From the UHGV virus genome UHGV-0130218: 19,889 bases of DNA; one strand, 5' to 3'. Under the pieces are notes generated by a model. The model did no database searches. It saw nothing but the letters and a program-made list of their open reading frames with translations, and was not told the DNA's origin. Of the stretch, positions 50 to 18,929 are shown piece after piece. Positions within the stretch are counted from its first letter, which is position 1; each line of letters opens with the position of its first letter. Both the position numbers and the translations under genes were made by a program. The stretch comes from a virus.

Positions 50-349
50 CTACTTCGAAGAAAGGGCAAGTTTGCGCACAGTCGTCAGGAAATTGAATGG
101 GGTTGAATCCCACAACTCAGGTGAAAAATCAAATCCATACCGGCTTTTGAACTCCTCATCCAGCCTGTCTCCGTAAAGCACAAGGAAAGAATCGACCTCT
201 TCGGCTAACTCTTTTAACATCCAGTCGGGAGCTGTTTTTTTATAGAGTTCAACAGTGCCTTCAATAGTATCCTCTCCCTCATTTATGAGGTCATGATCCT
301 GATTGAAATAACCCTGAATCAGCTGATCAAGATGATAGAAACTTTGCAT
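50..349 (-). CDS. Putative immunity protein of the adjacent toxin-like ORF
   Basis: 99-aa ORF that starts 12 nt downstream of the toxin-like ORF on the same strand. Small, acidic (D/E-rich), no catalytic motif, as is typical of immunity partners of nuclease toxins. Family not assignable by eye. Confidence 0.45.
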   Translation of the reverse strand: MQSFYHLDQLIQGYFNQDHDLINEGEDTIEGTVELYKKTAPDWMLKELAEEVDSFLVLYGDRLDEEFKSRYGFDFSPELWDSTPFNFLTTVRKLALSSK

Positions 350-361
350 AATCCACCTGTC

Positions 362-1207
362 CTATGGGGTCGGGAATGCTGTAAGGATATAGTAAGGTTT
401 TCCGTTATACTCTTGCAATTCGATAACAATCCTCACTCCACGCATGCTGATGCGCTGTGTGCTGCCTCGCGTGAATCCATACCCAACCTCCTGACCGGCA
501 GAATAATTGATGGTAAGGCGTCCACCAATTTTACCACCTCCGAGTAACGATTTGATATTTGCCCGGTTAAGATAGACCGCCCTCGAAATAACATTTTCAG
601 CAACATTTAAGTCTTTAAACGTTGAAGACATAACAAGTCGCTTATTTTTCTCGAATCGGGCAAGTAACTCACTGTCAGTTTTTCCGACATGATTTGCGAG
701 TGTATGGCCGCCGGGTTTAAGACCCGTAACTGATTCATGCTGGATCAATTTGATGCGACCAGCTTTAATTGCAGCTACACGGACGGCACCAATAGCAGCT
801 GCAAATCCAAGCGGAACGGCTATATCAACTGTCATGCCGATATTGAGGGCGGTGTCTTCATCGGCACCAAGTTCTCTTGCCGCGCTTACAGCAATTTGCC
901 AGGTGGCTGAGCGCGTATCACGACCGGTTATTAGCTGTCTGGCTGCGCTTTGAACAGCGTCAAGACTATGTGCACCAACAACCACACATCCCGCTTTCGT
1001 TAGTCCTGTTGGTTCTGGCGCGATACATAGTGCCGTGGCACCGGCCATTTCTACCGCTCCGAGTAAAACGCCAAGTCCCCCCAACAGTCGGTTACTCAGC
1101 GTTTCCGCCTCTGTAATGCTTTTATCTGAAAGCACCGCCGCCAGCTGTACCGGTGACATAACAACGACCATTCCACCTTCTTCCATAACAGTATCCCATC
1201 CCTCCAT
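362..1207 (-). CDS. Putative polymorphic-toxin-like protein (Gly/Ala-rich pre-toxin segment ending in TG plus C-terminal nuclease-like domain)
   Basis: 281-aa ORF. N-terminal part has a Gly/Ala-rich hydrophobic segment (LLGGLGVLLGAVEMAGATALCIAPEPTGL...AARQLITG) resembling pre-toxin TG domains. C-terminal ~130 aa carries GGHTLANHVGK (His-x4-His-x2-Lys), reminiscent of EndoU/RNase-type toxin domains. No secretion or delivery domain is present, and the upstream frame closes 17 codons before the ATG. Confidence 0.5.
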   Translation of the reverse strand: MEGWDTVMEEGGMVVVMSPVQLAAVLSDKSITEAETLSNRLLGGLGVLLGAVEMAGATALCIAPEPTGLTKAGCVVVGAHSLDAVQSAARQLITGRDTRSATWQIAVSAARELGADEDTALNIGMTVDIAVPLGFAAAIGAVRVAAIKAGRIKLIQHESVTGLKPGGHTLANHVGKTDSELLARFEKNKRLVMSSTFKDLNVAENVISRAVYLNRANIKSLLGGGKIGGRLTINYSAGQEVGYGFTRGSTQRISMRGVRIVIELQEYNGKPYYILTAFPTP

Positions 1208-5714: not shown

Positions 5715-5880
5715 ATTGCTAATTTGTTGTTGAAGCAACCAATATGCCCTACACGATTTTTCGATATACTAGGGCTGATTACGGTAGGTAAGTTGCATGT
5801 AACCTGGCCTACCTTATGACGCTCAAGAGCAGAAATGCACACACTAAGGGATGAGGTTGCTTCAACCCCTTTTATTTTCT
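5715..5880 (+). ncRNA. Candidate structured non-coding RNA downstream of the RT operon
   Basis: 5729-5740 GTTGAAGCAACC and 5855-5866 GGTTGCTTCAAC are perfect reverse complements (12 bp), enclosing ~115 nt with internal stems such as 5784-5789 GGTAGG / 5808-5813 CCTACC. A T-rich tail follows. No ORF. Confidence 0.35.
5848..5880 (+). terminator. Putative intrinsic terminator for the RT operon
   Basis: Stem GGTTG-CTT-CAACC at 5855-5867 followed by CCTTTTATTTTCT. The int stop codon (5862-5864 on the minus strand) lies in the loop. Confidence 0.4.
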
Positions 5881-7058
5881 ACAAAATTCCCCCACCACAG
5901 CATCAGCTCTACTCTTTGTTGCAAATAGACAGAGCGGTTGTATGCTCTTCGTACCTCATTCTTATCAGAATGAGCTAGTGCTGCTTCAATGACGTCTGGA
6001 TTAAATCCTTCTTCATTAAGCGTCGTGCTAGCTATCGAGCGTAAGCCATGAGCAACTAGCTTCCCATTCCAGCCAACTCTTTTTAGTGCAGCATTAGCCG
6101 TCTGGCTATTCATAGCTTTCTTAGGGTCATTTCTACTTGGAAAAACATGATCACGGTGCTTACTGATGGGTGCCATGATCTCAAGAATATAAAGCGCCTG
6201 AGGAGATAGAGGAATTAAATGTTCACGCTTCGCTTTCATCCTTTCGGCGGGGATTGTCCAGAGTTTTGAGTCGAGATCGATCTCTTCCCACCTGGTACCG
6301 GAGGCTTCAGAAGGGCGTACAAGGGTTAGGAGTTGCCACTCAATTAGACAGCGAGTAGGAACAGACAGATTTGACATAACCAAAGAACGCATCAGACTTG
6401 GTAATTCTTCTGGTCTAAGCGTAGGCATATTTTGCTTTTTAGGCCTCTCAAAAGCCATTCCAACTCCTGAGGTTGGGTTTGCGTCAATCAAGCCGGTATT
6501 TACCGCGTAAATCATAATCTCATTAATACGCTGTACCAGACGACGAACAGTCTCCAGAGCACCACGCGCTTTGATTGGCTCTAATGCTTCAACAATTGTT
6601 CTGGCCTTAATCTCCTGAACAGGTATCGTGCCTATTGCAGGGAAAACGTCCTTGTCTAAAGATCGCCAAATATCTTTTGCATAGTCTTCGGTGACGCTTT
6701 TGCTCTTCATTTTGAACCAGTTGGTGGCCACAGTTGAGAAAATGCTATCCAGCTCTATCTGACGCTTTTCTGATGCATGCTCTTGTTGCTGTTGTGGATC
6801 CATATCTAGCGCGAGCATGGTTAAGTGCTGGTCGCGTATCTGACGAGCTGCTGCGAGTGTAAAGGCAGGGTATGAGCCGAGACTCAAATTTGTGCGGCTG
6901 CTGCTTCCCGGTCGTTGATAACGGAAGCGCCAGAGTTTTTTGCCGGAGGTTTTTACGAGTAAGAACAGGCCATCACCATCATGCAGGGTGAAGTCTTTTT
7001 CGCGGGGTTTTGCTTTGAGGATTTCGTTGTTAGTGAGGGGGCGTGTAATGCGCGCCAT
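5862..7058 (-). CDS. int: P4-type tyrosine integrase
   Basis: 398 aa. N-terminus LTNNEILKAKPREKDFTLHDGDGLFLLVKTSGKKLWRFRYQRPG is typical of P4-family integrase arm-binding domains. The C-terminal catalytic region has HGLRS...LAHSDKNEVRRAYNRSVYL (R, H-x-x-R, Y). RBS aggga upstream. It is adjacent to a tmRNA 3' fragment, as with CP4-57 intA. Confidence 0.9.
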   Translation of the reverse strand: MARITRPLTNNEILKAKPREKDFTLHDGDGLFLLVKTSGKKLWRFRYQRPGSSSRTNLSLGSYPAFTLAAARQIRDQHLTMLALDMDPQQQQEHASEKRQIELDSIFSTVATNWFKMKSKSVTEDYAKDIWRSLDKDVFPAIGTIPVQEIKARTIVEALEPIKARGALETVRRLVQRINEIMIYAVNTGLIDANPTSGVGMAFERPKKQNMPTLRPEELPSLMRSLVMSNLSVPTRCLIEWQLLTLVRPSEASGTRWEEIDLDSKLWTIPAERMKAKREHLIPLSPQALYILEIMAPISKHRDHVFPSRNDPKKAMNSQTANAALKRVGWNGKLVAHGLRSIASTTLNEEGFNPDVIEAALAHSDKNEVRRAYNRSVYLQQRVELMLWWGNFVENKRG

Positions 7059-7079
7059 GTCTGGATCCCTTCCATAATT

Positions 7080-7127
7080 GGTACACGTTTAATGGACCAC
7101 AGTATAGCGTGTACCTAAACGTGTACC
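7080..7127. promoter_or_regulatory. Cluster of three 8-mer repeats (CGTGTACC) upstream of int; candidate integrase/regulator binding sites
   Basis: GGTACACG at 7080-7087 (inverted) and CGTGTACC at 7108-7115 and 7120-7127, between the int start and the att core. Confidence 0.3.
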
Positions 7128-7171
7128 TATTTTCTCTGGATTTAACCGGATGTTCTCGGACAACGCCAGAC

Positions 7172-7210
7172 ACAAAAAAGCCCGCAGGGCTTGCGCCGTG
7201 CGGGCTTTCA
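7172..7210 (-). terminator. Intrinsic terminator downstream of the tmRNA 3' fragment (minus strand)
   Basis: Minus-strand reading: GCCCGCA-(12-nt loop)-TGCGGGC followed by TTTTTTGTG (plus coordinates 7205-7172). Confidence 0.5.
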
Positions 7211-7262
7211 GGACTTCATCGGATGACTCTGGTAATCACCGATGGAACATTTTGGTGGAGCT

Positions 7263-7300
7263 GGCGGGAGTTGAACCCGCATCCGTAACCAGCTATCTCA
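7263..7300 (-). other. ssrA: tmRNA (ssrA) 3'-terminal fragment serving as att core (not a complete gene)
   Basis: Reverse complement of 7263-7290 is GCGGGTTCAACTCCCGCCAGCTCCACCA, which matches the T-arm, acceptor 3' strand and CCA end of enterobacterial tmRNA. Sequence beyond 7300 is AT-rich coding DNA with no tag-peptide region. Confidence 0.7.
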
Positions 7301-7311
7301 TTGAAAAATAA

Positions 7312-8172
7312 TCAAATAAATTTGTTTTTCCATGTCTCGTATCTTTTACGTATCCTTTGAAGTAGTAATGCCGTCCAGCTAAGGCCGTGAGAGAATGTTA
7401 GATTAAAAGTTGCTTCCACTGTATCTCCACGTATTGAGAATCTATTTATCCGATATTCAGTAGAAAAAAACTCTTTTTTTGTTGTTCCAGAGATTTCTTC
7501 ATATTCAATTAATAAAACAGGCCCATCTATTTGAGTTAACATATTTTCATGGAGGCTGATTTTATCCAAGAGGTAGTTAGATAATAGTGTCGGTATTAAT
7601 GTGGGGATGTGAAGATTTACCTCTTCTTTGTTAACGCTCCAAGGGAGAATATAAACAACATCAGAATATTGTTCTTCATGAGAATACCATTTGGATTGAC
7701 CAAAACCTAATAATGAAATGTAAGTGTGACCTTGTTTGTCTAATTGATAACAGTATTCATTAGCCATCATGGCTGCTTTGTAACCTTTGGTGTCAAAGGT
7801 ATGTTCATCGTCTAGTTTTTTTATTTTATTTAACAAAAAATGTTTTTCGTAATTGAATATCCATTGGTATTTGAATTTCAACGCTGGGCCTAGACCAACA
7901 TTTAATATTGGCAGGGTGGGATTGTTGTTTTTTGATATAGCATCAAAAACACCTTTGTTTACTATTTTTGTTTTATCAATTTTTATTTTTACATCTTTAG
8001 TGATTATCTGTACTTTGTTTGATAACTTTCTTTGGATAACAGTTTGCCTTATAGCTAAATAAGCAGCAATTGCTGATAAAGCACTTGCTGTCAAACCACC
8101 ATATCCGAGCCATGCGGGGTCTGCCATATCGAAGTATTCCTGCCTTATAACAAGGCAGGAATTATTTCTCAA
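7312..8172 (-). CDS. Hypothetical membrane-anchored protein; AT-rich moron between the lambdoid int and the att core
   Basis: 286-codon ORF with a TTG start; a more likely ATG start at 8127 gives MADPAWLGYGGLTASALSAIAAYLAI, a predicted N-terminal transmembrane helix. The ~240-aa soluble domain has no motif I recognise. Strongly AT-rich compared with the neighbouring int. Confidence 0.6.
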   Translation of the reverse strand: MRNNSCLVIRQEYFDMADPAWLGYGGLTASALSAIAAYLAIRQTVIQRKLSNKVQIITKDVKIKIDKTKIVNKGVFDAISKNNNPTLPILNVGLGPALKFKYQWIFNYEKHFLLNKIKKLDDEHTFDTKGYKAAMMANEYCYQLDKQGHTYISLLGFGQSKWYSHEEQYSDVVYILPWSVNKEEVNLHIPTLIPTLLSNYLLDKISLHENMLTQIDGPVLLIEYEEISGTTKKEFFSTEYRINRFSIRGDTVEATFNLTFSHGLSWTALLLQRIRKRYETWKNKFI

Positions 8173-9344
8173 TTCTTCACATTGTTCAAGGATGTGATCG
8201 ATGAGTTGTTATCATAATCTTTCAAATAGCGTCCGTAATGACGAAAGAGCATCTCAGGTCCTTTGTGGCCCATCTGCGCAGCCAGCCAAAATAAGTTTAC
8301 ACCGCAGCTTATCATACGTGTGGCGAATGTATGCCTTGTCTGATAAGGATTACGGTACCTGATACCGGCTTTCCGGAGCGTAGGAACCCAGGCTTTTTTC
8401 CTAATGGCGTCCGCGCTGGCCCATGGCTTGTTTGTCTTCGGATCTTCAAAGACACAACCATTCTTCATGAAGCTAAAGGGCTTTTGTTCGTTTAGAGCAA
8501 TCATCGCTTCCTCGGTTAACTCAACCTTGCGTGTTCCTGCCTTCGTTTTCGTACCTTTCGTCACGCCAGAGACGCTGGCGCTCTGTACATGAGCCGTCTT
8601 CTCAACGAAGTCAATGTCCCTCCAGCGTAGTGCGCAAAGTTCCGAACTGCGTAGACCTGTCTGAAGCGCAAATCTGAATAAGTTCTCCCATTGCTTATTA
8701 CCCGCTGATTTTAACAGCGCGCTTACCTCTGCTGGAGATAGTGGATCAACAATATAAGTACTTTCCTCGTCACTTTTTTTGCTTTGATATCGTGAAGCTG
8801 TTACCTGTGACACTGGATTAATTTGTAAAACACCATCAGTTACAGCTTCATCAAGTGAGGAACGAAGAAACGACAACTGGTTACGTATCGTCTTCAATGT
8901 TGTTTTCTGATTCTGAATCCATGTTTTTAATGCTGCTGGCGTTAACTCACTGGCCGGGAAAATGTGAAGTTCAGACAGTGCGCTACGGCATTTTTTATAC
9001 CCGCCAATGGTGGAGGGGGAAAGATTCCTCGTTTCGCAAATCTTCAGGTACTCATCAAGATACATTTTCACTGTTTTCCCGGTCGCAGCATTACCGAAAA
9101 TTTTTAACCTCACCGAACGAGGGAAATATTCAGCATAGATAAATGTTCCACGCTCGATTTTGTTGTGGATTTCGCCGAGCATACGCTCGGCATATTTAAG
9201 GTTTTTGTTGTTCACTTCTAGATTTGAAAGGGGTTCTCTGCATTTCACCCCCTTGTATGTGAACGTAATATTGATGGTTTCACCACTGCTGTGCTTCCTG
9301 ATGGTTACACCACGTGGGAGTTTAGGCGATTCTTTCGTGCCCAT
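8169..9344 (-). CDS. int: Phage tyrosine integrase (lambdoid type)
   Basis: 391 aa. C-terminal catalytic region RNPYQTRHTFATRMISCGVNLFWLAAQMGHKGPEMLFRHYGRYL (R...H-x-x-R...Y). Its start overlaps the xis-like ORF. Confidence 0.9.
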   Translation of the reverse strand: MGTKESPKLPRGVTIRKHSSGETINITFTYKGVKCREPLSNLEVNNKNLKYAERMLGEIHNKIERGTFIYAEYFPRSVRLKIFGNAATGKTVKMYLDEYLKICETRNLSPSTIGGYKKCRSALSELHIFPASELTPAALKTWIQNQKTTLKTIRNQLSFLRSSLDEAVTDGVLQINPVSQVTASRYQSKKSDEESTYIVDPLSPAEVSALLKSAGNKQWENLFRFALQTGLRSSELCALRWRDIDFVEKTAHVQSASVSGVTKGTKTKAGTRKVELTEEAMIALNEQKPFSFMKNGCVFEDPKTNKPWASADAIRKKAWVPTLRKAGIRYRNPYQTRHTFATRMISCGVNLFWLAAQMGHKGPEMLFRHYGRYLKDYDNNSSITSLNNVKN

Positions 9345-12144: not shown

Positions 12145-12516
12145 TCACTGAGCCGCTTTAAGCTTTCCGTCAACGCCGCCGTTGATGCCGAACAACTGTC
12201 CCTGATCTTCTTGGAGGATGGTCAGCTTGCCGCCTTTGTTAACCCACATTGGTGTTTCGGTGGTGTCTTCTTCGGAGGCTTTACCGCGCGGGGTAGGGGT
12301 TACGTAGTTCAGCTTGTGCTTGATCTTGACGCGCTTCTCTTCGACGGAGTTACCCATACGCTCAATATCAAAGGTGAGGACTACTTTGCCTTTGGTACCG
12401 TTGTTCAGAACGCCAAGCGCGGTAGTGTTTAAAGCTGCCGCGATCTTGTTCATGAACACGCCGGCATCCAGTTCGCCCAGGAAATCGGGCACTACGGTCA
12501 TGCGGTCATTACTCAT
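12145..12516 (-). CDS. YfdP-like prophage protein
   Basis: 123 aa, first sizeable ORF of the leftward early operon. Assignment is by synteny and size only. Confidence 0.5.
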   Translation of the reverse strand: MSNDRMTVVPDFLGELDAGVFMNKIAAALNTTALGVLNNGTKGKVVLTFDIERMGNSVEEKRVKIKHKLNYVTPTPRGKASEEDTTETPMWVNKGGKLTILQEDQGQLFGINGGVDGKLKAAQ

Positions 12517-13267
12517 GGTTTAACCCTCTGTGAGGCGGCTGCCACCGCCAGTGGAACTTCTCCATACACAACAGAAAAGGGCACCTGCGTAGCAGTGAAG
12601 ATTGCAGCCTCCATTTCTGCGCCCGGGTGGATTGGGGAATGAGCCCGTCGCCCGGTGATGCCCTTGTCTCTTGTGTAAAAAAGGTGCCCACCGATGTGAT
12701 GGGCAAAGACTACTCACAGCAATGATTTTGTTGTGGCGGTGGTGCCTCCACCTGCCGGACCGGCCAGAACCGGCGACGCTACACCTCAAGAAACGTATTC
12801 ATTTCAAATGTTGAAATAAAAACTTGTTGGCCTCGTCACGTGCGCAGAGCCGCATTACCACAACTGGAAGCGCACTCCGCCAGGTAACAAACCGATCCCC
12901 ATCAGTAAGAAGAGGAGTGCGCTTTCATGTTGTGTTGTGTTGGTCGGTGCTGATCTCCGGCTTTCGGGATGGTTTTGCCATTGCCCCGCGCGGGTTAATA
13001 GTCCGCTGCACATCAGCCTGTGCATTCACCACAACGGTGAGGGCACTGTTTATCTGCTTTACCGATTCGCGTCTCACGCAGTCCGATAATCAGCAATGCT
13101 CTCGCCTGTTGTGCCCTTAAAAAGCTGGCTGTCACCCTCAAGGGGAAAGTGAGCAGCCAGAACAGGGATCACTTCTTATTGCTTTGGCCTGCTTTTAACC
13201 ACATCAGGCGCGGTGGTTCTGCTTAACAACCGCGAAAGTAATAGTGGGTACCAATCGCGTGATTTAA

Positions 13268-13319
13268 ATGTACCTTTAGTTACTTTTTCGGTCAAGCGAG
13301 GAATGTACTTTTTGTTACC
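13268..13319. promoter_or_regulatory. OL-like operator region (two copies of the ATGTACYTTTWGTTAC motif)
   Basis: 13268-13283 atgtacctttagttac and 13303-13318 atgtactttttgttac, immediately 3' of the repressor gene. The same motif recurs at 14078-14093 in the cI-cro intergenic region. Confidence 0.45.
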
Positions 13320-13371
13320 ATGAGGGATAAAAAAAATGCCAGATGAGCATCCGGCATTAGAAATGAATAAC

Positions 13372-14031
13372 TTAAATATTCTGGGTTATCTGAACAACTT
13401 TACCGACAATCCGGCAATTTCCATCTATCGGTATAGGTTTGAAGGCAGGATTAAGCGGCATCAGATACGCGAAAGGGCTATCCCAGACGAGTTTTTTCAC
13501 TGTTGCTTCAGCAGAGCCATCAAGTATCGCCACGACTATTTTCCCGTAAAGGTCATCCAGTTGGCCATAGTGTGGTTCAACTATTACGATCGACCCTTCG
13601 GGTATGGATGGTAGACCATGTGGGTTAGTCATCGATTCCCCACGAACAACCAGGCCGAATACTTCATCAGAAACGTTTGCAGTGGTTTGCGTCCATGAAA
13701 TCACATCAGAAAGCCTTGAGCATGCGTAAGTATCAGTCCACGTCCCTGCCTGGACAGCAGAGATAATTGGAACTGCCTTAGGGGGCTTGAGAAAGGGGAT
13801 CACTTTGGTGTCATCCTGCGCTTCATCTCCTTTCCCGTAGAGAATCCATTCAGGCGTGGTTTGCAACGCCATCGCCAGCTGATGGAGGTTCTCACCATCA
13901 GGCTTCGTGTTACCGCTCTCCCATTTAGTAACGGACACGCGGCTAACACCTAGGCGTTTAGCTAGGGTCTGCTGCGTTATATCGAGCTGGACTCGACGGG
14001 ATCTTATTCGGTCTTTCATCTCTGTTTTCAT
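13372..14031 (-). CDS. cI: CI-type phage repressor (HTH plus S24 LexA-like peptidase domain)
   Basis: 219 aa. N-terminal HTH QQTLAKRLGVSRVSVTKWESG. C-terminal GESM (Ser nucleophile) and ATVKKL (Lys) motifs. Divergent from the cro-like gene. Confidence 0.85.
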   Translation of the reverse strand: MKTEMKDRIRSRRVQLDITQQTLAKRLGVSRVSVTKWESGNTKPDGENLHQLAMALQTTPEWILYGKGDEAQDDTKVIPFLKPPKAVPIISAVQAGTWTDTYACSRLSDVISWTQTTANVSDEVFGLVVRGESMTNPHGLPSIPEGSIVIVEPHYGQLDDLYGKIVVAILDGSAEATVKKLVWDSPFAYLMPLNPAFKPIPIDGNCRIVGKVVQITQNI

Positions 14032-14094
14032 GTAACCAATGTTACATTGATTCCTTGTAACTGTTGTTTGCTATTTGATGTACCTTTTGTTACC
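14032..14094. promoter_or_regulatory. OR-like operator region between cI and cro
   Basis: Inverted half-sites TGTAAC-N4-GTTACA at 14031-14046, gtaactgttg at 14055-14064, and atgtaccttttgttac at 14078-14093. RBS aggagg at 14113-14118 precedes cro. Confidence 0.45.
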
Positions 14095-14123
14095 TTTAAG
14101 GCGTGAGTTAACTAGGAGGAGCC

Positions 14124-14312
14124 ATGCGTAAATCACAAGTTATTGAGCACTTTGGCGGAGTATCAAAAACCGCCAGTGTTCTTGGGATCTCCCATCCGGC
14201 TGTTTGCCGATGGGGAGAGGTTATTCCTCAGAAGCAAGCGTTCGTTATCGAACGAATTACTGAAGGCAAGCTTAAGTACGACGCCAGCCTTTATCAGAAG
14301 CCTACAGATTAG
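14124..14312 (+). CDS. cro: Cro-type small HTH repressor
   Basis: 62 aa. VIEHFGGVSKTASVLGISHPAVCRWGEVIPQKQAFVIERITEGKLKY resembles P22-type Cro as I recall it. Divergent from cI, with a strong RBS. Confidence 0.8.
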   Translation: MRKSQVIEHFGGVSKTASVLGISHPAVCRWGEVIPQKQAFVIERITEGKLKYDASLYQKPTD

Positions 14313-14349
14313 GCATCTGGGAAGAAACCACAGATATAAGGGGTTAGCC

Positions 14350-14898
14350 GTGGGTATAGAACCTGAATGGAAAGTAGATAAGCAGCCAGCCTGGCTGGTG
14401 GCCGCAATCAAAAAAACGATAACCGAGCTTCCTGGCGGGTATTCCGAAGCAGCTGAGTGGTTGGGTGTGACCGAGAACGCGCTGTTTAACCGGCTGCGTA
14501 CCGATGGTGATCAGATCTTCCCGCTCGGTTGGGCGATGGTGCTTCAGCGTGCTGGTGGTTCAAACCACATAGCGAACGCTATTGCACGTCACTCGAACGG
14601 TGTGTTTGTGCCATTGGCTGATGTTGAAAAGATTGAGAACGGCGATATCAACCAGCGTCTCATGGAGTCAGTTGAGTGGATCGGCAGGCATTCGCAATAC
14701 GTTCGTAAAGCTACCGCTGACGGCGTTATTGATGCTCAGGAACGCGCCCAGATCGAAGAGAACAGCTATCAGGTGATGGCTAAGTGGCAGGAACATTTGA
14801 CGCTGCTTTTCCGTGTGTTTTGCGCGCCGGAAAAGAGTGACGCCCGCGAGTGTGCAGCTCCGGGCGTCGTGGCAGACAAATCTTGTATGGAGAAGTAA
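14350..14898 (+). CDS. CII-like / YdaT-like regulatory protein (start probably GTG at 14350, not the longer 14143 frame)
   Basis: The long ORF-track frame from 14143 would overlap cro. GTG at 14350 is preceded by aagggg 8 nt upstream. Position after cro and size (~183 aa) fit CII-like regulators of lambdoid prophages. Family call is tentative. Confidence 0.5.
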   Translation: MGIEPEWKVDKQPAWLVAAIKKTITELPGGYSEAAEWLGVTENALFNRLRTDGDQIFPLGWAMVLQRAGGSNHIANAIARHSNGVFVPLADVEKIENGDINQRLMESVEWIGRHSQYVRKATADGVIDAQERAQIEENSYQVMAKWQEHLTLLFRVFCAPEKSDARECAAPGVVADKSCMEK

Positions 14899-15070: not shown

Positions 15071-15250
15071 ATGCGCGAAGTTAACCGAAGGTTCAAAGAC
15101 CACAGAGGGATCCCCGTTCGGGTTATCCGGTGGGAGCCAGAGACTCAACGAGTTATCTACCTGCGGGATGGTTATAACCACGAATGTTTCAGCCCGCTCG
15201 AACAATTTAAGCGCAAGTTTACAGAGTTAAAGGACGACCATGAGCACTAA
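15071..15250 (+). CDS. Small conserved phage protein (59 aa), below the ORF-track size cutoff
   Basis: ATG at 15071 with GAAGG upstream. Encodes MREVNRRFKDHRGIPVRVIRWEPETQRVIYLRDGYNHECFSPLEQFKRKFTELKDDHEH, a balanced protein-like composition. It overlaps the next gene start and lies fully inside the low-complexity 14850-15230 frame. Confidence 0.4.
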   Translation: MREVNRRFKDHRGIPVRVIRWEPETQRVIYLRDGYNHECFSPLEQFKRKFTELKDDHEH

Positions 15251-16103
15251 ATTAACGGGTTACGTTTGGGACGCTTGTGCCGCTTCTGGCATGAAGCTGT
15301 CCAGCGTTGCCATCATGGCGCGTCTGGCAGACTTCAGCAGTGATGAAGGGGTTAGCTGGCCTTCCATCGCTACCATTGCGCGCCAGATTGGTGCCGGTGA
15401 GAGCACGGTTCGCACAGCCATATCTCAACTGGAAAAAGACGGGTGGTTAACCCGTCAGCAGCGCCGTAAAGGCAACCGCAATGCATCGAACGTTTACCAG
15501 CTTAATGTTGCGAAATTACAGGCTGCTGCCTTTTCTCACCTGTCAGATTCTGACGCATCAAAATCTGATGCCTCAAAAACCGACGCGTCAAAATCTGAGG
15601 CATCAAAAAACGATGAAAAAGGCGGTTTTCACCCGTCAGAATCTGGGGGGGATCCGTCAGTAAATACAACTACTGATCCATCAGATAAAAAACATTCTTG
15701 TCCGGTTGCTGCGCAACCCGACCCTGTGGTGGTTATCACCGATCAGGCGAAGCAGGTTTTATCACATCTGAACAAGACCACTGGTTCACGGTATCAGGTC
15801 TGCAAATCGTCCTTGGAAAACATCCGGGCTCGCCTGGCTGACGGGTTTACGCCCGATGAGCTGCTGTTGGTGGTGGATTACAGCGTCGAGAAGTGGGGCG
15901 AGGATCTGAAAATGGCCGAATACCTGCGCCCAACAACGTTGTTTTTGCCATCTAAATTCCCAGGTTACCTGCAATCCGCAAATAAGTGGAACGCAGCAGG
16001 ACGCCCAGAACGACAGTACTGGGGCTCAATTCGTAAGCATGATCCGATGAAATTTGGTGGGCCAGATAAAGCCATCCCAGCTGGCTTCAGGGGAGCGAAA
16101 TGA
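15240..16103 (+). CDS. Replication initiator (lambda O-like; N-terminal winged-HTH, C-terminal phage replication-protein domain) with internal repeats
   Basis: 287 aa. N-terminal HTH-like segment VSWPSIATIARQIGAGESTVRTAISQLEKDGWL. Central (S/T)DASK pentapeptide repeats encoded by 15-bp tandem repeats. Position after cro/cII as for lambda O. Confidence 0.65.
   Translation: MSTKLTGYVWDACAASGMKLSSVAIMARLADFSSDEGVSWPSIATIARQIGAGESTVRTAISQLEKDGWLTRQQRRKGNRNASNVYQLNVAKLQAAAFSHLSDSDASKSDASKTDASKSEASKNDEKGGFHPSESGGDPSVNTTTDPSDKKHSCPVAAQPDPVVVITDQAKQVLSHLNKTTGSRYQVCKSSLENIRARLADGFTPDELLLVVDYSVEKWGEDLKMAEYLRPTTLFLPSKFPGYLQSANKWNAAGRPERQYWGSIRKHDPMKFGGPDKAIPAGFRGAK
15549..15608 (+). repeat. Four tandem 15-bp repeats inside the O-like gene; candidate origin iterons
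   Basis: tctgacgcatcaaaa / tctgatgcctcaaaa / accgacgcgtcaaaa / tctgaggcatcaaaa, in frame (coding SDASK-like repeats). Analogous to the lambda ori iterons, which lie within O. Confidence 0.5.
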
Positions 16104-16999
16104 TGAGCATGAATGCTGATAACAAATATTGCCGCGCGCTGGCTGAACTTCGCTCAAAGCCAGCGCATGAATTGAAAGAGGTTGGCGATCAGTGGCGCAC
16201 TCCGGATTTGTTGTTTTGGGGCATCAATTCGATATTTGGGCCGATGGTTCTGGATCTGTTTGCAGACGATAGCAATGCTAAATGCCCTGCATGGTATACC
16301 GCCGAAGATAACGCGCTGACGCAGGATTGGTCAGTGCGTCTGGCAGAACTCGGTGGCGCCGCGTTTGCAAATCCGCCTTATAGCCGTTCTCAGTACCATG
16401 AAAAGCAGGCCATCACTGGCATGACCCACATCATGAATCACACAATGGCGATGCGTGATAAAGGTGGTCGTTACATATACCTCGTGAAGTCAGCCACAAG
16501 TGAAACATGGTGGCCGGAGGATGCCGATCACATCATGTTTATTCGTGGTCGTATTGGGTTCGATCTTCCTGTTTGGTTTGTTCCCGCTGACGAGAAGCAG
16601 CAACCCACCAGCGCATTTTTTGCCGGGGCAATCGCTGTCTTTGACAAAACCTGGCGTGGTGAAAGCTTCAGCTATATCAATCGCACCGAACTGGAAGAAA
16701 AAGGGCGAGCAGCATTGTCATTGGCTCAATTCGCCGCGGCAAAAATGGCCCTTCCGTCCGTGCCGGAAAAAGCAATGCCTACTGCCATTGCAACGCCTGA
16801 TGCAGAGTCGCGCATCTGGCCGCTGGAGGTTGGTCTGGTATTCAATCAGCTCGAGGGGGCGGATTCTCTGGAGGTGAACCAACAGAACAAGTTGAAGGCC
16901 AACATCAACCAACTCTGGCTGGAGCGTGTGCCTACCAGCGAAATAATTAGCGTGGCTGGTGGTCTGATTAGCAGCATGCAGGGGGCCGTCAATGCGTGA
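16100..16999 (+). CDS. Phage N6-adenine DNA methyltransferase (Dam-type)
   Basis: 299 aa. N-terminal WRTPDLLFWGINSIFGPMVLDLFADDSNAKCPAWYT and catalytic motif FANPPYS. Overlaps the upstream gene by 4 nt and the downstream gene by 8 nt. Confidence 0.7.
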   Translation: MMSMNADNKYCRALAELRSKPAHELKEVGDQWRTPDLLFWGINSIFGPMVLDLFADDSNAKCPAWYTAEDNALTQDWSVRLAELGGAAFANPPYSRSQYHEKQAITGMTHIMNHTMAMRDKGGRYIYLVKSATSETWWPEDADHIMFIRGRIGFDLPVWFVPADEKQQPTSAFFAGAIAVFDKTWRGESFSYINRTELEEKGRAALSLAQFAAAKMALPSVPEKAMPTAIATPDAESRIWPLEVGLVFNQLEGADSLEVNQQNKLKANINQLWLERVPTSEIISVAGGLISSMQGAVNA

Positions 17000-18929
17000 A
17001 ATCATCGTTGATAACTTTGCCGGTGGTGGCGGCGCGAGTACCGGCATTGAACTGGCCATCGGGCGTAGCGTGGATATCGCTATCAACCACGACGAAAACG
17101 CTATTGCGATGCATAAGACGAATCACCCTGACACGCTGCATTATTGCGAGTCGGTGTTTGACGTTGACCCAAGCGCAGCCACCAGCGGTAAACCTGTCGG
17201 TCTGGCCTGGTTTAGCCCTGACTGCCGCCACTTTTCCAAAGCTAAGGGCGCTAAGCCGGTTAAGAAAGAGATTCGCGGGCTGGCGTGGATTGTTCTGCGC
17301 TGGGCGCTGGCAGTACGTCCCCGCGTCATGATGCTGGAGAACGTCGAAGAATTTAAGACATGGGGCCCGCTGCTGGATGAAGAATTACGCCCGGATCCTG
17401 AGCGTGCTGGTGAAACATTCGAGGCATTTGTCGGCATGCTGTCGACTGGTATCGCGGCGAATCACCCAGCACTGGCTGAGGTTTGCGAATTTCTTGCCAT
17501 TGAGCCGCACGGCCAGCAGGCGCAACAGCTGATCGCTGGGCTTGGCTATGAGGTCGATTATCGTGAGCTGCGCGCTTGTGATTACGGCGCGCCGACGATC
17601 AGAAAGCGTTTCTTCATGGTCATGCGCTGTGACGGCCGCAAGATTCATTGGCCTGAAGCGACTCATGGGGATCCAAAATCACTGGAAGTACAAAGCGGCA
17701 AGCTGGCGCCATGGCGTACCGCGGCGGAGTGCATTGACTGGAATATCCCGGCCCGGTCCATCTTCGACCGCAAAAAGCCGCTGGCGGAAAATACGCTCAA
17801 ACGTATCGCGCGCGGCATCCAGCGCTTTGTTATCGAAAGCGCATCGCCTTTCATCGTGAAGTGTAACCACACCACGACGAAAGGAGGTTATGACTGTTTC
17901 CGCGGGCAATCGTTGTTAGAGCCATTGCAGACCATCACTAAAAAGCATGGCTACGCGCTGGCGGTACCGCATCTTACTAAATTCCGCACCGGGGCCACCG
18001 GGCAGCCAGTGACCGAGCCGGTACCAACTGTCACCGCTGGTACGTCGGCTCGCCCGGGCGGTAATGGGCATGCGCTTGGCGTAGTTGAGGCCGCGCTGAC
18101 ACCGTTCCTGGCGGGCAATGGCGGCAGTGAGTACCAGGCAAAGCCGCGCCCGCTGGATAAACCCGCTCATACAATCCTCAAGCAGTCCCGCGCGTGTGTG
18201 GTTGCTCCTGTCATCGCCCGCCAGTTTGGTGCCAGTGTTGGGCACAGGGCAGACGAGCCTAGCGCAACGATTACTGCTGGCGGTGGCGGTAAATCGCAGC
18301 TGGTAACCCCAACACTGATCCAGATGGGATACGGCGAACGCCCAGGGCAAGAACCGCGTGTTCTTCAACTGAATAACCCGCTCGGCACGGTCACTGCTGG
18401 TGGTAATAAGTTTGCGGCGGTGAGCGCGTTCCTGGCGAAGCACTATGGTGGGAATTACTCGGGGCCGGGTGTTGGTATGGATGAGCCTGCCCACTCAGTC
18501 ACTACCGTTGATCATCACGCGGTAGTTGCGTCGCACCTGGTGAAGCTGCGCGGAACCTGCCGCGACGGTCAGACCATGGATACACCTATGCCGACGATTA
18601 CCGCTGGTGGCCAGCACGTTGGCGAGGTCCGGACATTCCTCGAAACCTACTGCGGTGAAAGCGAGGATGAATGGCTGGTGACGATCGAAGGAGTTAAGTA
18701 CCAGATCATCGATATCGGAATGCGCATGCTGCAACCGCATGAGCTTTATAAGGCGCAGGGCTTCCCTGACGGCTACGTTATCGATCAGGACTATCGCGGC
18801 AATCGTTACGCCAAAGACAAGCAGGTAGCGCGCTGCGGTAACGCAGTACCGCCGCCGTTCGCTCGTGCGCTGGTAGAGGCAAATCTTCCTGAATTATGTG
18901 CAAATCAAAAGGCGGGTGCAGCCGCCTGA
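16992..18929 (+). CDS. C5-cytosine DNA methyltransferase with an expanded repeat-containing variable region
   Basis: 645 aa. Motif I FAGGGG, motif IV region FSPDCRHFS, motif VI MLENV, C-terminal ARCGNAVPPPFA. The central region holds about seven ~36-aa modules, each with a P-x-x-T-(I/V)-T core. Confidence 0.85.
   Translation: MREIIVDNFAGGGGASTGIELAIGRSVDIAINHDENAIAMHKTNHPDTLHYCESVFDVDPSAATSGKPVGLAWFSPDCRHFSKAKGAKPVKKEIRGLAWIVLRWALAVRPRVMMLENVEEFKTWGPLLDEELRPDPERAGETFEAFVGMLSTGIAANHPALAEVCEFLAIEPHGQQAQQLIAGLGYEVDYRELRACDYGAPTIRKRFFMVMRCDGRKIHWPEATHGDPKSLEVQSGKLAPWRTAAECIDWNIPARSIFDRKKPLAENTLKRIARGIQRFVIESASPFIVKCNHTTTKGGYDCFRGQSLLEPLQTITKKHGYALAVPHLTKFRTGATGQPVTEPVPTVTAGTSARPGGNGHALGVVEAALTPFLAGNGGSEYQAKPRPLDKPAHTILKQSRACVVAPVIARQFGASVGHRADEPSATITAGGGGKSQLVTPTLIQMGYGERPGQEPRVLQLNNPLGTVTAGGNKFAAVSAFLAKHYGGNYSGPGVGMDEPAHSVTTVDHHAVVASHLVKLRGTCRDGQTMDTPMPTITAGGQHVGEVRTFLETYCGESEDEWLVTIEGVKYQIIDIGMRMLQPHELYKAQGFPDGYVIDQDYRGNRYAKDKQVARCGNAVPPPFARALVEANLPELCANQKAGAAA

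Follow-up and report, generated by a model that had tools for sequence, protein, structure and literature searches.

The repeats around the cI-like repressor gene described here are very probably operators of that repressor, and would belong to the lysis/lysogeny switch of a lambdoid prophage of the P22 C2/phage 21 type. The complete stretch of DNA that was analysed, 19,889 nucleotides of the virus genome UHGV-0130218, is referred to as the window. Three kinds of evidence carry this assignment: the dyad structure and layout of the sites, their conservation among related loci, and the co-variation of their half-sites with the recognition helix of the repressor.

Repeats and probable operator sites

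The 16-bp sequence ATGTACYTTTWGTTAC is present in three exact copies (13268-13283, 13303-13318 and 14078-14093), all on the + strand, and is found nowhere else in the window. An earlier note on this DNA had placed two of these copies just 3' of cI and one in the cI-cro intergenic region, and both the coordinates and the exactness of the matches are right. The left pair lies 54-106 bp past the stop codon of cI (13372-13374), with an intrinsic terminator on the - strand between the pair and the gene. When up to three mismatches to the 16-mer were allowed, four matches were found in the window versus 0.57 expected, the fourth being the palindrome designated OR3 in Table 1. The core of this palindrome, TGTAACCAATGTTACA (TGTAAC-N4-GTTACA, 14031-14046), is perfect except for its centre. 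The A of the cI ATG (CAT on the + strand, 14029-14031) is paired with the first T of this core, and the inverted TGTAAC/GTTACA half-sites that had been seen abutting the start codon in fact overlap it by one base.

Judged from the sequence, the true unit is an 18-bp dyad, ATGTAAC-N4-GTTACAT, with 7-bp arms and a 4-bp centre. The reading of the motif as an OL/OR operator in the earlier note is supported, but the note had delimited it as a 16-mer repeat. The same applies to its description of OR, which comprised the copy at 14078 and the half-sites at the cI start: both are retained, but a middle site, OR2, had been missed, and OR is now read as three sites. OR2 is located by its position, 25 bp from OR3 and 23 bp from OR1, which is like that of the middle site of the imm21/P22-type, and its GTAAC arm is kept among the relatives.

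To score the sites, a position-weight matrix made from 24 distinct sites of relatives only, with the window excluded, was applied to the entire 19.9-kb window. The four top scores fell on OR3, OR1, OL1 and OL2, in this order (Table 1). In 200 simulated sequences, the best matrix score had a mean of 9.3 (sd 2.7), and the motif is thus far beyond chance. OR2 and a candidate weak third OL site are indistinguishable from background by matrix score alone. At the offset of this third site (-30 to -32), the Klebsiella phage and E. coli MIN9 have sites of 11.1 bits, Kluyvera one of 11.5 bits and Edwardsiella one of 22.6 bits, and the site is absent from those loci that carry the conserved block GGCTACTTCGTGGGCGTCCTGCCTGTTCGCTG at that place. 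One further match in the window (18020-18035, 11.5 bits), which lies inside the cytosine-methylase gene, was rejected as a probable chance match because its score lies less than 1 sd from the mean best score of the simulations.

Table 1. Coordinates of the predicted operator sites, promoters and genes of the immunity region in the window
Feature	Coordinates	Strand	Sequence elements	Remarks
OL1 ATGTACCTTTAGTTACTT	13268-13285		ATGTACC TTTA GTTACTT	covers pL -10 and spacer; 18.6 bits; invariant in relatives
OL2 ATGTACTTTTTGTTACCA	13303-13320		ATGTACT TTTT GTTACCA	directly upstream of pL -35; 35 bp from OL1; 17.7 bits
Candidate weak third OL site AGTAATAGTGGGTACC	13237-13252			32 bp from OL1, in transcribed pL leader; 8.0 bits
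OR3 ATGTAACCAATGTTACAT	14030-14047		ATGTAAC CAAT GTTACAT	perfect 7-bp arms; overlaps cI ATG; 21.5 bits
OR2 TTGTAACTGTTGTTTGCT	14055-14072		TTGTAAC TGTT GTTTGCT	left arm good, right arm poor; overlaps PR -35; 5.0 bits
OR1 ATGTACCTTTTGTTACCT	14078-14095		ATGTACC TTTT GTTACCT	covers PR spacer and -10; 21.3 bits
pL, putative leftward early promoter	13267-13295	-	-35 TTGACC 13295-13290, 17-bp spacer, -10 TACATT 13272-13267	promoter scan
PR, putative rightward early promoter	14068-14096	+	-35 TTGCTA 14068-14073, 17-bp spacer, -10 TACCTT 14091-14096	inferred
Intrinsic cI terminator	13325-13358	-	10-bp stem (13358-13335) and T-run	ends cI transcript before OL2
cI-like repressor, 219 aa	13372-14031	-		P22 C2-like HTH and S24 self-cleaving domain
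cro, 62 aa, P22_Cro family	14124-14312	+		PF14549 5.6e-23; PDB 1RZS (P22 Cro) 1.1e-12
CII (CP76)-type regulator	14350-14898			follows cro
Replication/HTH protein	15240-16103			downstream of CII-type gene
Immunity cassette OL-cI-OR-cro	13259-14332			~1.1 kb; match to 14310, to 14332 with more sensitive search

Repressor, Cro and early genes

The two genes that had been called cI and cro on inspection were identified as such by homology, cro as a member of the P22_Cro family and cI by the Pfam domains HTH_3 (3.4e-15) and Peptidase_S24 (3e-22). In a phmmer search against PDB sequences, the repressor matched the P22 C2 N-terminal domain (1ADR, 5.4e-14; 2R1J, 1.3e-13) and lambda cI (1e-21), and a tblastn comparison with imm21 C2 gave 43.5% identity over residues 5-213. 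Residues 10-213 align with residues 23-226 of lambda cI. Within this alignment VQA95-G96, GES133M and VK179K are placed opposite VQAG, GNSM and FKKL of lambda, which correspond to the cleavage site (Ala95-Gly96), the catalytic Ser133 and Lys179. The order of elements is that of a lambdoid early region, i.e. pL/OL - cI - PRM/OR/PR - cro - cII - replication genes. An ORF of 92 aa (13336-13614, + strand) runs antisense to cI and overlaps the cI terminator and the coding region.

The repressor belongs to a 90%-identity cluster of 520 members from Enterobacter, Klebsiella, Citrobacter, Leclercia and Raoultella, the annotation of which is generic only (“LexA family / S24 peptidase”).

Specificity of the probable operators

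The earlier note had suggested a comparison with the operators of known lambdoid immunity groups. As a reference for the imm21/P22-type, the region carried by phage DE3 was used, which contains operator-like 18-mers of the ATTTAAG-N4-CTTAAAT type. The start-to-start spacings in phage 21/P22 are the same as in the window (35 bp at OL, 25 and 23 bp at OR), OR3 directly adjoins the start codon of the repressor gene in both, and both share the two-domain repressor, the P22_Cro-family Cro and 18-bp dyads with a 4-bp centre. However, the half-site of the window, ATGTAAC, differs from ATTTAAG at positions 3 and 7, and helix 3 of its repressor, SRVSVTKW, differs from SNVAISQW at five of eight positions. 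Lacking the half-site of P22/21 immunity and the corresponding helix, the window is therefore a relative with a different specificity and not a member of the P22/21 immunity group. Furthermore, the -10 of PR appears at the outer end of OR1 in the window and between OR2 and OR1 in phage 21/P22, and, again unlike phage 21/P22, the window has no detectable N gene downstream of pL. In P22, the repressor has six 18-bp binding sites with rotational symmetry, and makes contacts at positions 2-7 and 12-17 but none at the four central bp (PMC4267663). Compared with these six operators in all (PMC4267663), the window has only two strong sites at OL.

A second comparison is provided by a sister group, Enterobacteria phage mEp390, Yersinia phage YeP1 and Escherichia phage vB_EcoM-720R4, whose repressors are 52-54% identical to that of the window. 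Site layout and spacing are the same, as is the register in which OR3 overlaps the ATG. In this group, the half-site is TGTAGG/CCTACA and the residue before the helix-3 Trp is Gly, whereas the window has Lys at this position, so that heteroimmunity is to be expected for these phages. The window was also compared with ZF40 (Pectobacterium), AH07 (Pantoea) and ST101-KPC2phi6.3 (Klebsiella). Their repressors are 62%, 80% and 95% identical to that of the window, respectively, and they have the TGTAAC/GTTACA half-sites and a helix 3 of the ..TKW form, as in the window, while the surrounding phage genomes differ from that of the window. The OL spacing of ZF40 is 33 bp instead of 35 bp. We predict that the window, ZF40, AH07 and ST101-KPC2phi6.3 form one immunity group. 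As the half-site is unlike both that of P22/21 (TTTAAG) and that of the mEp390 group (TGTAGG), the cassette would define an immunity group of its own. ZF40 itself is a myovirus of the phiPLPE group (PMC3391216).

On an operator layout that is the same in all three groups, the half-site thus changes with the repressor: TGTAAC is found with the helix 3 of the window or with SRVTITKW (ZF40), TGTAGG with (N/S)RVTVTGW (mEp390, YeP1, 720R4 and an Stx2c prophage), and TTTAAG with the imm21/P22-type helix. Among the indirect lines of evidence, this co-variation speaks most strongly for the repeats being sites of the repressor itself that set its immunity specificity, and it supports what the earlier note had claimed for the motif.

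The co-variation also weighs on the alternative that CI recognises some other sequence and that the repeats serve only Cro, or else a different regulator, for example a host factor or the CII-like activator. Because Cro proteins share the operators of their repressors, the sequence alone cannot assign the protein that selects for conservation, and the three copies of ATGTACYTTTWGTTAC, with TGTACC and a T-rich centre, form a sub-class that is distinct from the symmetric OR3. As to the CII-like candidate, activators of the CII type act at direct repeats in or near cro-cII and not at OL. We nevertheless consider this alternative improbable: the half-site tracks helix 3 of the repressor across three groups, no other repeated dyad was found in the OL or OR regions, and the layout is position for position that of phage 21/P22, where the repressor binds such sites (PMC4267663).

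If the repeats are the operators of the CI-like repressor, a more far-reaching reading can be formulated, which we regard, taken as a whole, as rather unlikely. Under this reading, the operators would comprise two functional sub-classes that both regulators tell apart mainly via the centre of the site. One may be represented by the asymmetric TGTACC-(T-rich)-GTTACC at OR1, OL1 and OL2, which is nearly invariant in relatives, and the other by the symmetric TGTAAC-CAAT-GTTACA at OR3. In addition, the correspondence of Lys, Gly or Gln before the helix-3 Trp with AAC, AGG or AAG in the half-site would constitute a natural recognition code of P22-type repressors.

With lambda, the window shares the general logic, i.e. 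a tripartite OR between the divergent cI and cro genes, an OL at the leftward promoter, operators that overlap -10 and -35 elements, and a cI start codon at or beside the likely transcription start. Lambda operators, however, are 17-bp sites with a sequence unrelated to that of the window, and lambda Cro belongs to a different fold family. In lambda, rexAB separates cI from OL and pL is followed by the N gene, whereas in the window the terminator and then OL directly follow cI.

In the literature searched, neither TGTAAC operators nor the operators or the switch of ZF40 are described, and there is no binding, footprint or expression report for this repressor. The word operator does not occur in the ZF40 genome paper, and the published descriptions of AH07 and ST101-KPC2phi6.3 are without operators. 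The immunity type is thus ordinary and apparently undescribed, with a different specificity on a P22 C2-type switch. While the general concept of such switches is unchanged, the operator definition is concrete and testable, and it concerns a type of immunity often found in Enterobacterales. It predicts which prophages and phages should be homoimmune, ZF40, a phage used in anti-CRISPR work, among them.

Conservation of the sites

The conservation alignment contains 16 loci, i.e. the window and 15 relatives with cI genes that are 67-95% identical. A scan of one genome per species yielded 13 further loci, with repressors of 67-90% identity, from Pseudescherichia, Kluyvera, Phytobacter, Kosakonia, Buttiauxella, Edwardsiella and others. 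Over the 16 sequences, column identity is 93% in OR3, 92% in OR2 and 99% in OR1, compared with 52% in the OR3-OR2 spacer and 55% in the cro leader; the conservation of OR2 is partly confounded with that of the PR -35, and that of OR1 and OL1 with that of the -10 hexamers. At OL, only OL1, the GTCAA of the pL -35, the arms of OL2 and the A/T-run of the terminator are conserved. GTCAA and AATGTA of pL are invariant or nearly so in the 16 aligned loci, and the spacer between the sites varies. OL2 has an invariant GTTAC arm and a freely varying centre (TTTT, TTAT, CTAT, AAAA or TAAA).

Since operators and promoters overlap in this way, the shared sequence might be a duplicated promoter core, made up of the -10 elements and spacers of pL and PR and conserved for RNA polymerase. 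OL1 indeed holds TACATT and OR1 holds TACCTT, and OR2 overlaps the -35 of PR. This explanation is very improbable, because OL2 and OR3 carry the same dyad at other promoter positions, the motif has opposite orientations with respect to transcription at pL and at PR, and conservation is equally high in the dyad arm that lies away from each -10. Moreover, the sister phages alter both arms symmetrically.

Next to the operators, the cI terminator (13335-13358) shows compensatory stem changes across the relatives. Its pairing and A/T-run are kept and its sequence is replaced, which makes it a clean small example of structure-preserving evolution.

Promoters and proposed mode of action

Whereas pL was called by the promoter scan, PR is below the threshold of the scanner and was read from the sequence, in a block that is conserved in all relatives. 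As the scan overall gave no enrichment over shuffles, the promoter calls rest on conservation and not on the scan. The PR spacer carries TG at 14088-14089 and ends in TGT, and PR is a plausible extended -10 promoter for cro. At the PR position, mEp390 has TTGACC-18-TACTAT.

For cI, a -10-like hexamer, TAACAT (14044-14039, - strand), lies inside OR3, 7 nt upstream of the A of the ATG, and is the probable -10 of PRM. No Shine-Dalgarno sequence precedes the cI ATG. Together, these two features suggest that the cI mRNA is leaderless, as in lambda. The geometry of PRM is uncertain, as a start at the cI ATG would centre OR2 near -32, compared with near -42 in lambda.

In the proposed switch, dimers of the 219-aa repressor would recognise ATGTAAC-N4-GTTACAT by HTH contacts to the outer 6-7 bp in both arms and by indirect readout of the A/T-rich 4-bp centre. 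Repressor bound to OR1 and OR2 would block PR and thereby keep cro, the CII-like gene and the replication genes off, and repressor bound to OL1 and OL2 would block pL. Occupancy of OR3, either at high repressor concentration or by Cro, which is expected at the same sites, would shut off the promoter of cI itself. RecA-stimulated self-cleavage at Ala95-Gly96 would lift repression. The P22 repressor binds best to sites with an A-tract centre, with a KD of 4.3 nM, the other tested centres giving 14.4 and 57.6 nM (PMC4267663). By analogy with this preference, OR1, OL1 and OL2 should be strong sites due to their pure A/T centres, and OR3 (CAAT) and OR2 (TGTT) should be weaker.

Exchange of the immunity cassette

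The cassette OL-cI-OR-cro is 86-87% identical in Klebsiella phage ST101-KPC2phi6.3, in the Escherichia phages vB_EcoS-733R5 and 716R3, and in 23 of 5,426 complete E. coli chromosomes, all of which have unrelated flanks. Conversely, the flanks of the window (to 13218 and from 14327/14345 onwards) match, at 91-98% identity, the Escherichia phages Eeyore, Flotzy and LLS, which have different repressor and cro genes. The edges lie just outside OL1 and just after cro. Because the cassette is shared with unrelated flanks and the flanks are shared with other repressors, OL-cI-OR-cro can be considered exchangeable, and by these homologies it is a swappable cassette, which is the classical definition of an immunity region. 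That the copies are merely conserved junctions that promote module recombination, a by-product of mosaicism without a regulatory role, is hardly credible: the homology of the Klebsiella-phage cassette does start at 13259, 9 bp before OL1, and that of Eeyore/LLS stops at 13218, but the OR copies are internal to the cassette, and junctions need neither dyad symmetry nor fixed spacing nor helix co-variation. Studies of protein-DNA recognition could draw on the cassette for naturally occurring variants of specificity within a constant P22-like scaffold.

The leftward leader

Between pL and the first gene of the leftward operon, which is yfdP-like (12145-12516), lies a leader of ~740 nt (12517-13262, - strand) in which no convincing ORF was found. 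It contains two terminator-like hairpins, one at ~13168-13120 that is followed by CUUUUUAA and one at 12705-12685 that is followed by a T-run. In addition, there is a long hairpin at 12865-12927, and the fold of 12670-12960 has a z of -3.6. The small minus-strand ORFs of 12509-13295 gave no relevant PHROGs match for an N-type antiterminator; a weak match of unknown function was obtained for one junk-like ORF. A scan of the whole window with Rfam at gathering thresholds gave no hits. Given two terminator-like hairpins in an ORF-poor leader of 740 nt and no N homologue, the leftward operon possibly uses an unrecognised antitermination device, which may be RNA-based.

Directly after pL, many relatives have a nearly invariant block of ~38 nt, GGCTACTTCGTGGGCGTCCTGCCTGTTCGCTGTTGATG (in window orientation), which the window lacks. 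The block is carried by loci L005, L007-L009, L011, L014, L016-L018, L020 and L022, which include YeP1 and thus a different immunity group.

Other features of the window

The left part of the window contains several further elements. At 50-1207 (- strand) there is an orphan toxin/immunity pair, consisting of a 281-aa protein with a C-terminal CdiA-CT RNase A-like domain (3.7e-33) and, after it, a CdiI_2 immunity protein (3.6e-21). The segment 2846-5714 (+ strand) holds a defence pair of DRT type 3, with matches to Drt3a (7e-108) and Drt3b (2e-223). The Drt3a ORF has a TTG start and covers positions 114-416 of the model only, and the 1.6 kb upstream of it (1208-2845) contain no ORF of at least 90 aa. 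Drt3a may therefore have undergone truncation or a frameshift; alternatively, this upstream stretch may hold a non-coding component.

Two integrase genes lie in tandem (5862-7058 and 8169-9344), in the stretches 5862-7300 and 7252-9344. The element of the left integrase, with psu, primase and integrase, resembles P4-like satellites that in E. coli are inserted at ssrA. The start of the lambdoid prophage is at ~7252, beside an ssrA-derived att fragment. No tRNA or tmRNA was found in a scan of the window, which thus has no intact tmRNA gene, and the ssrA-type attachment site is therefore present as a fragment only.

In the early right operon (16100-18929, + strand), a Dam-like N6-adenine methyltransferase of 299 aa adjoins a C5-cytosine methylase. 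The latter is unusually long (645 aa), and its first ~120 residues alone match the Pfam model.
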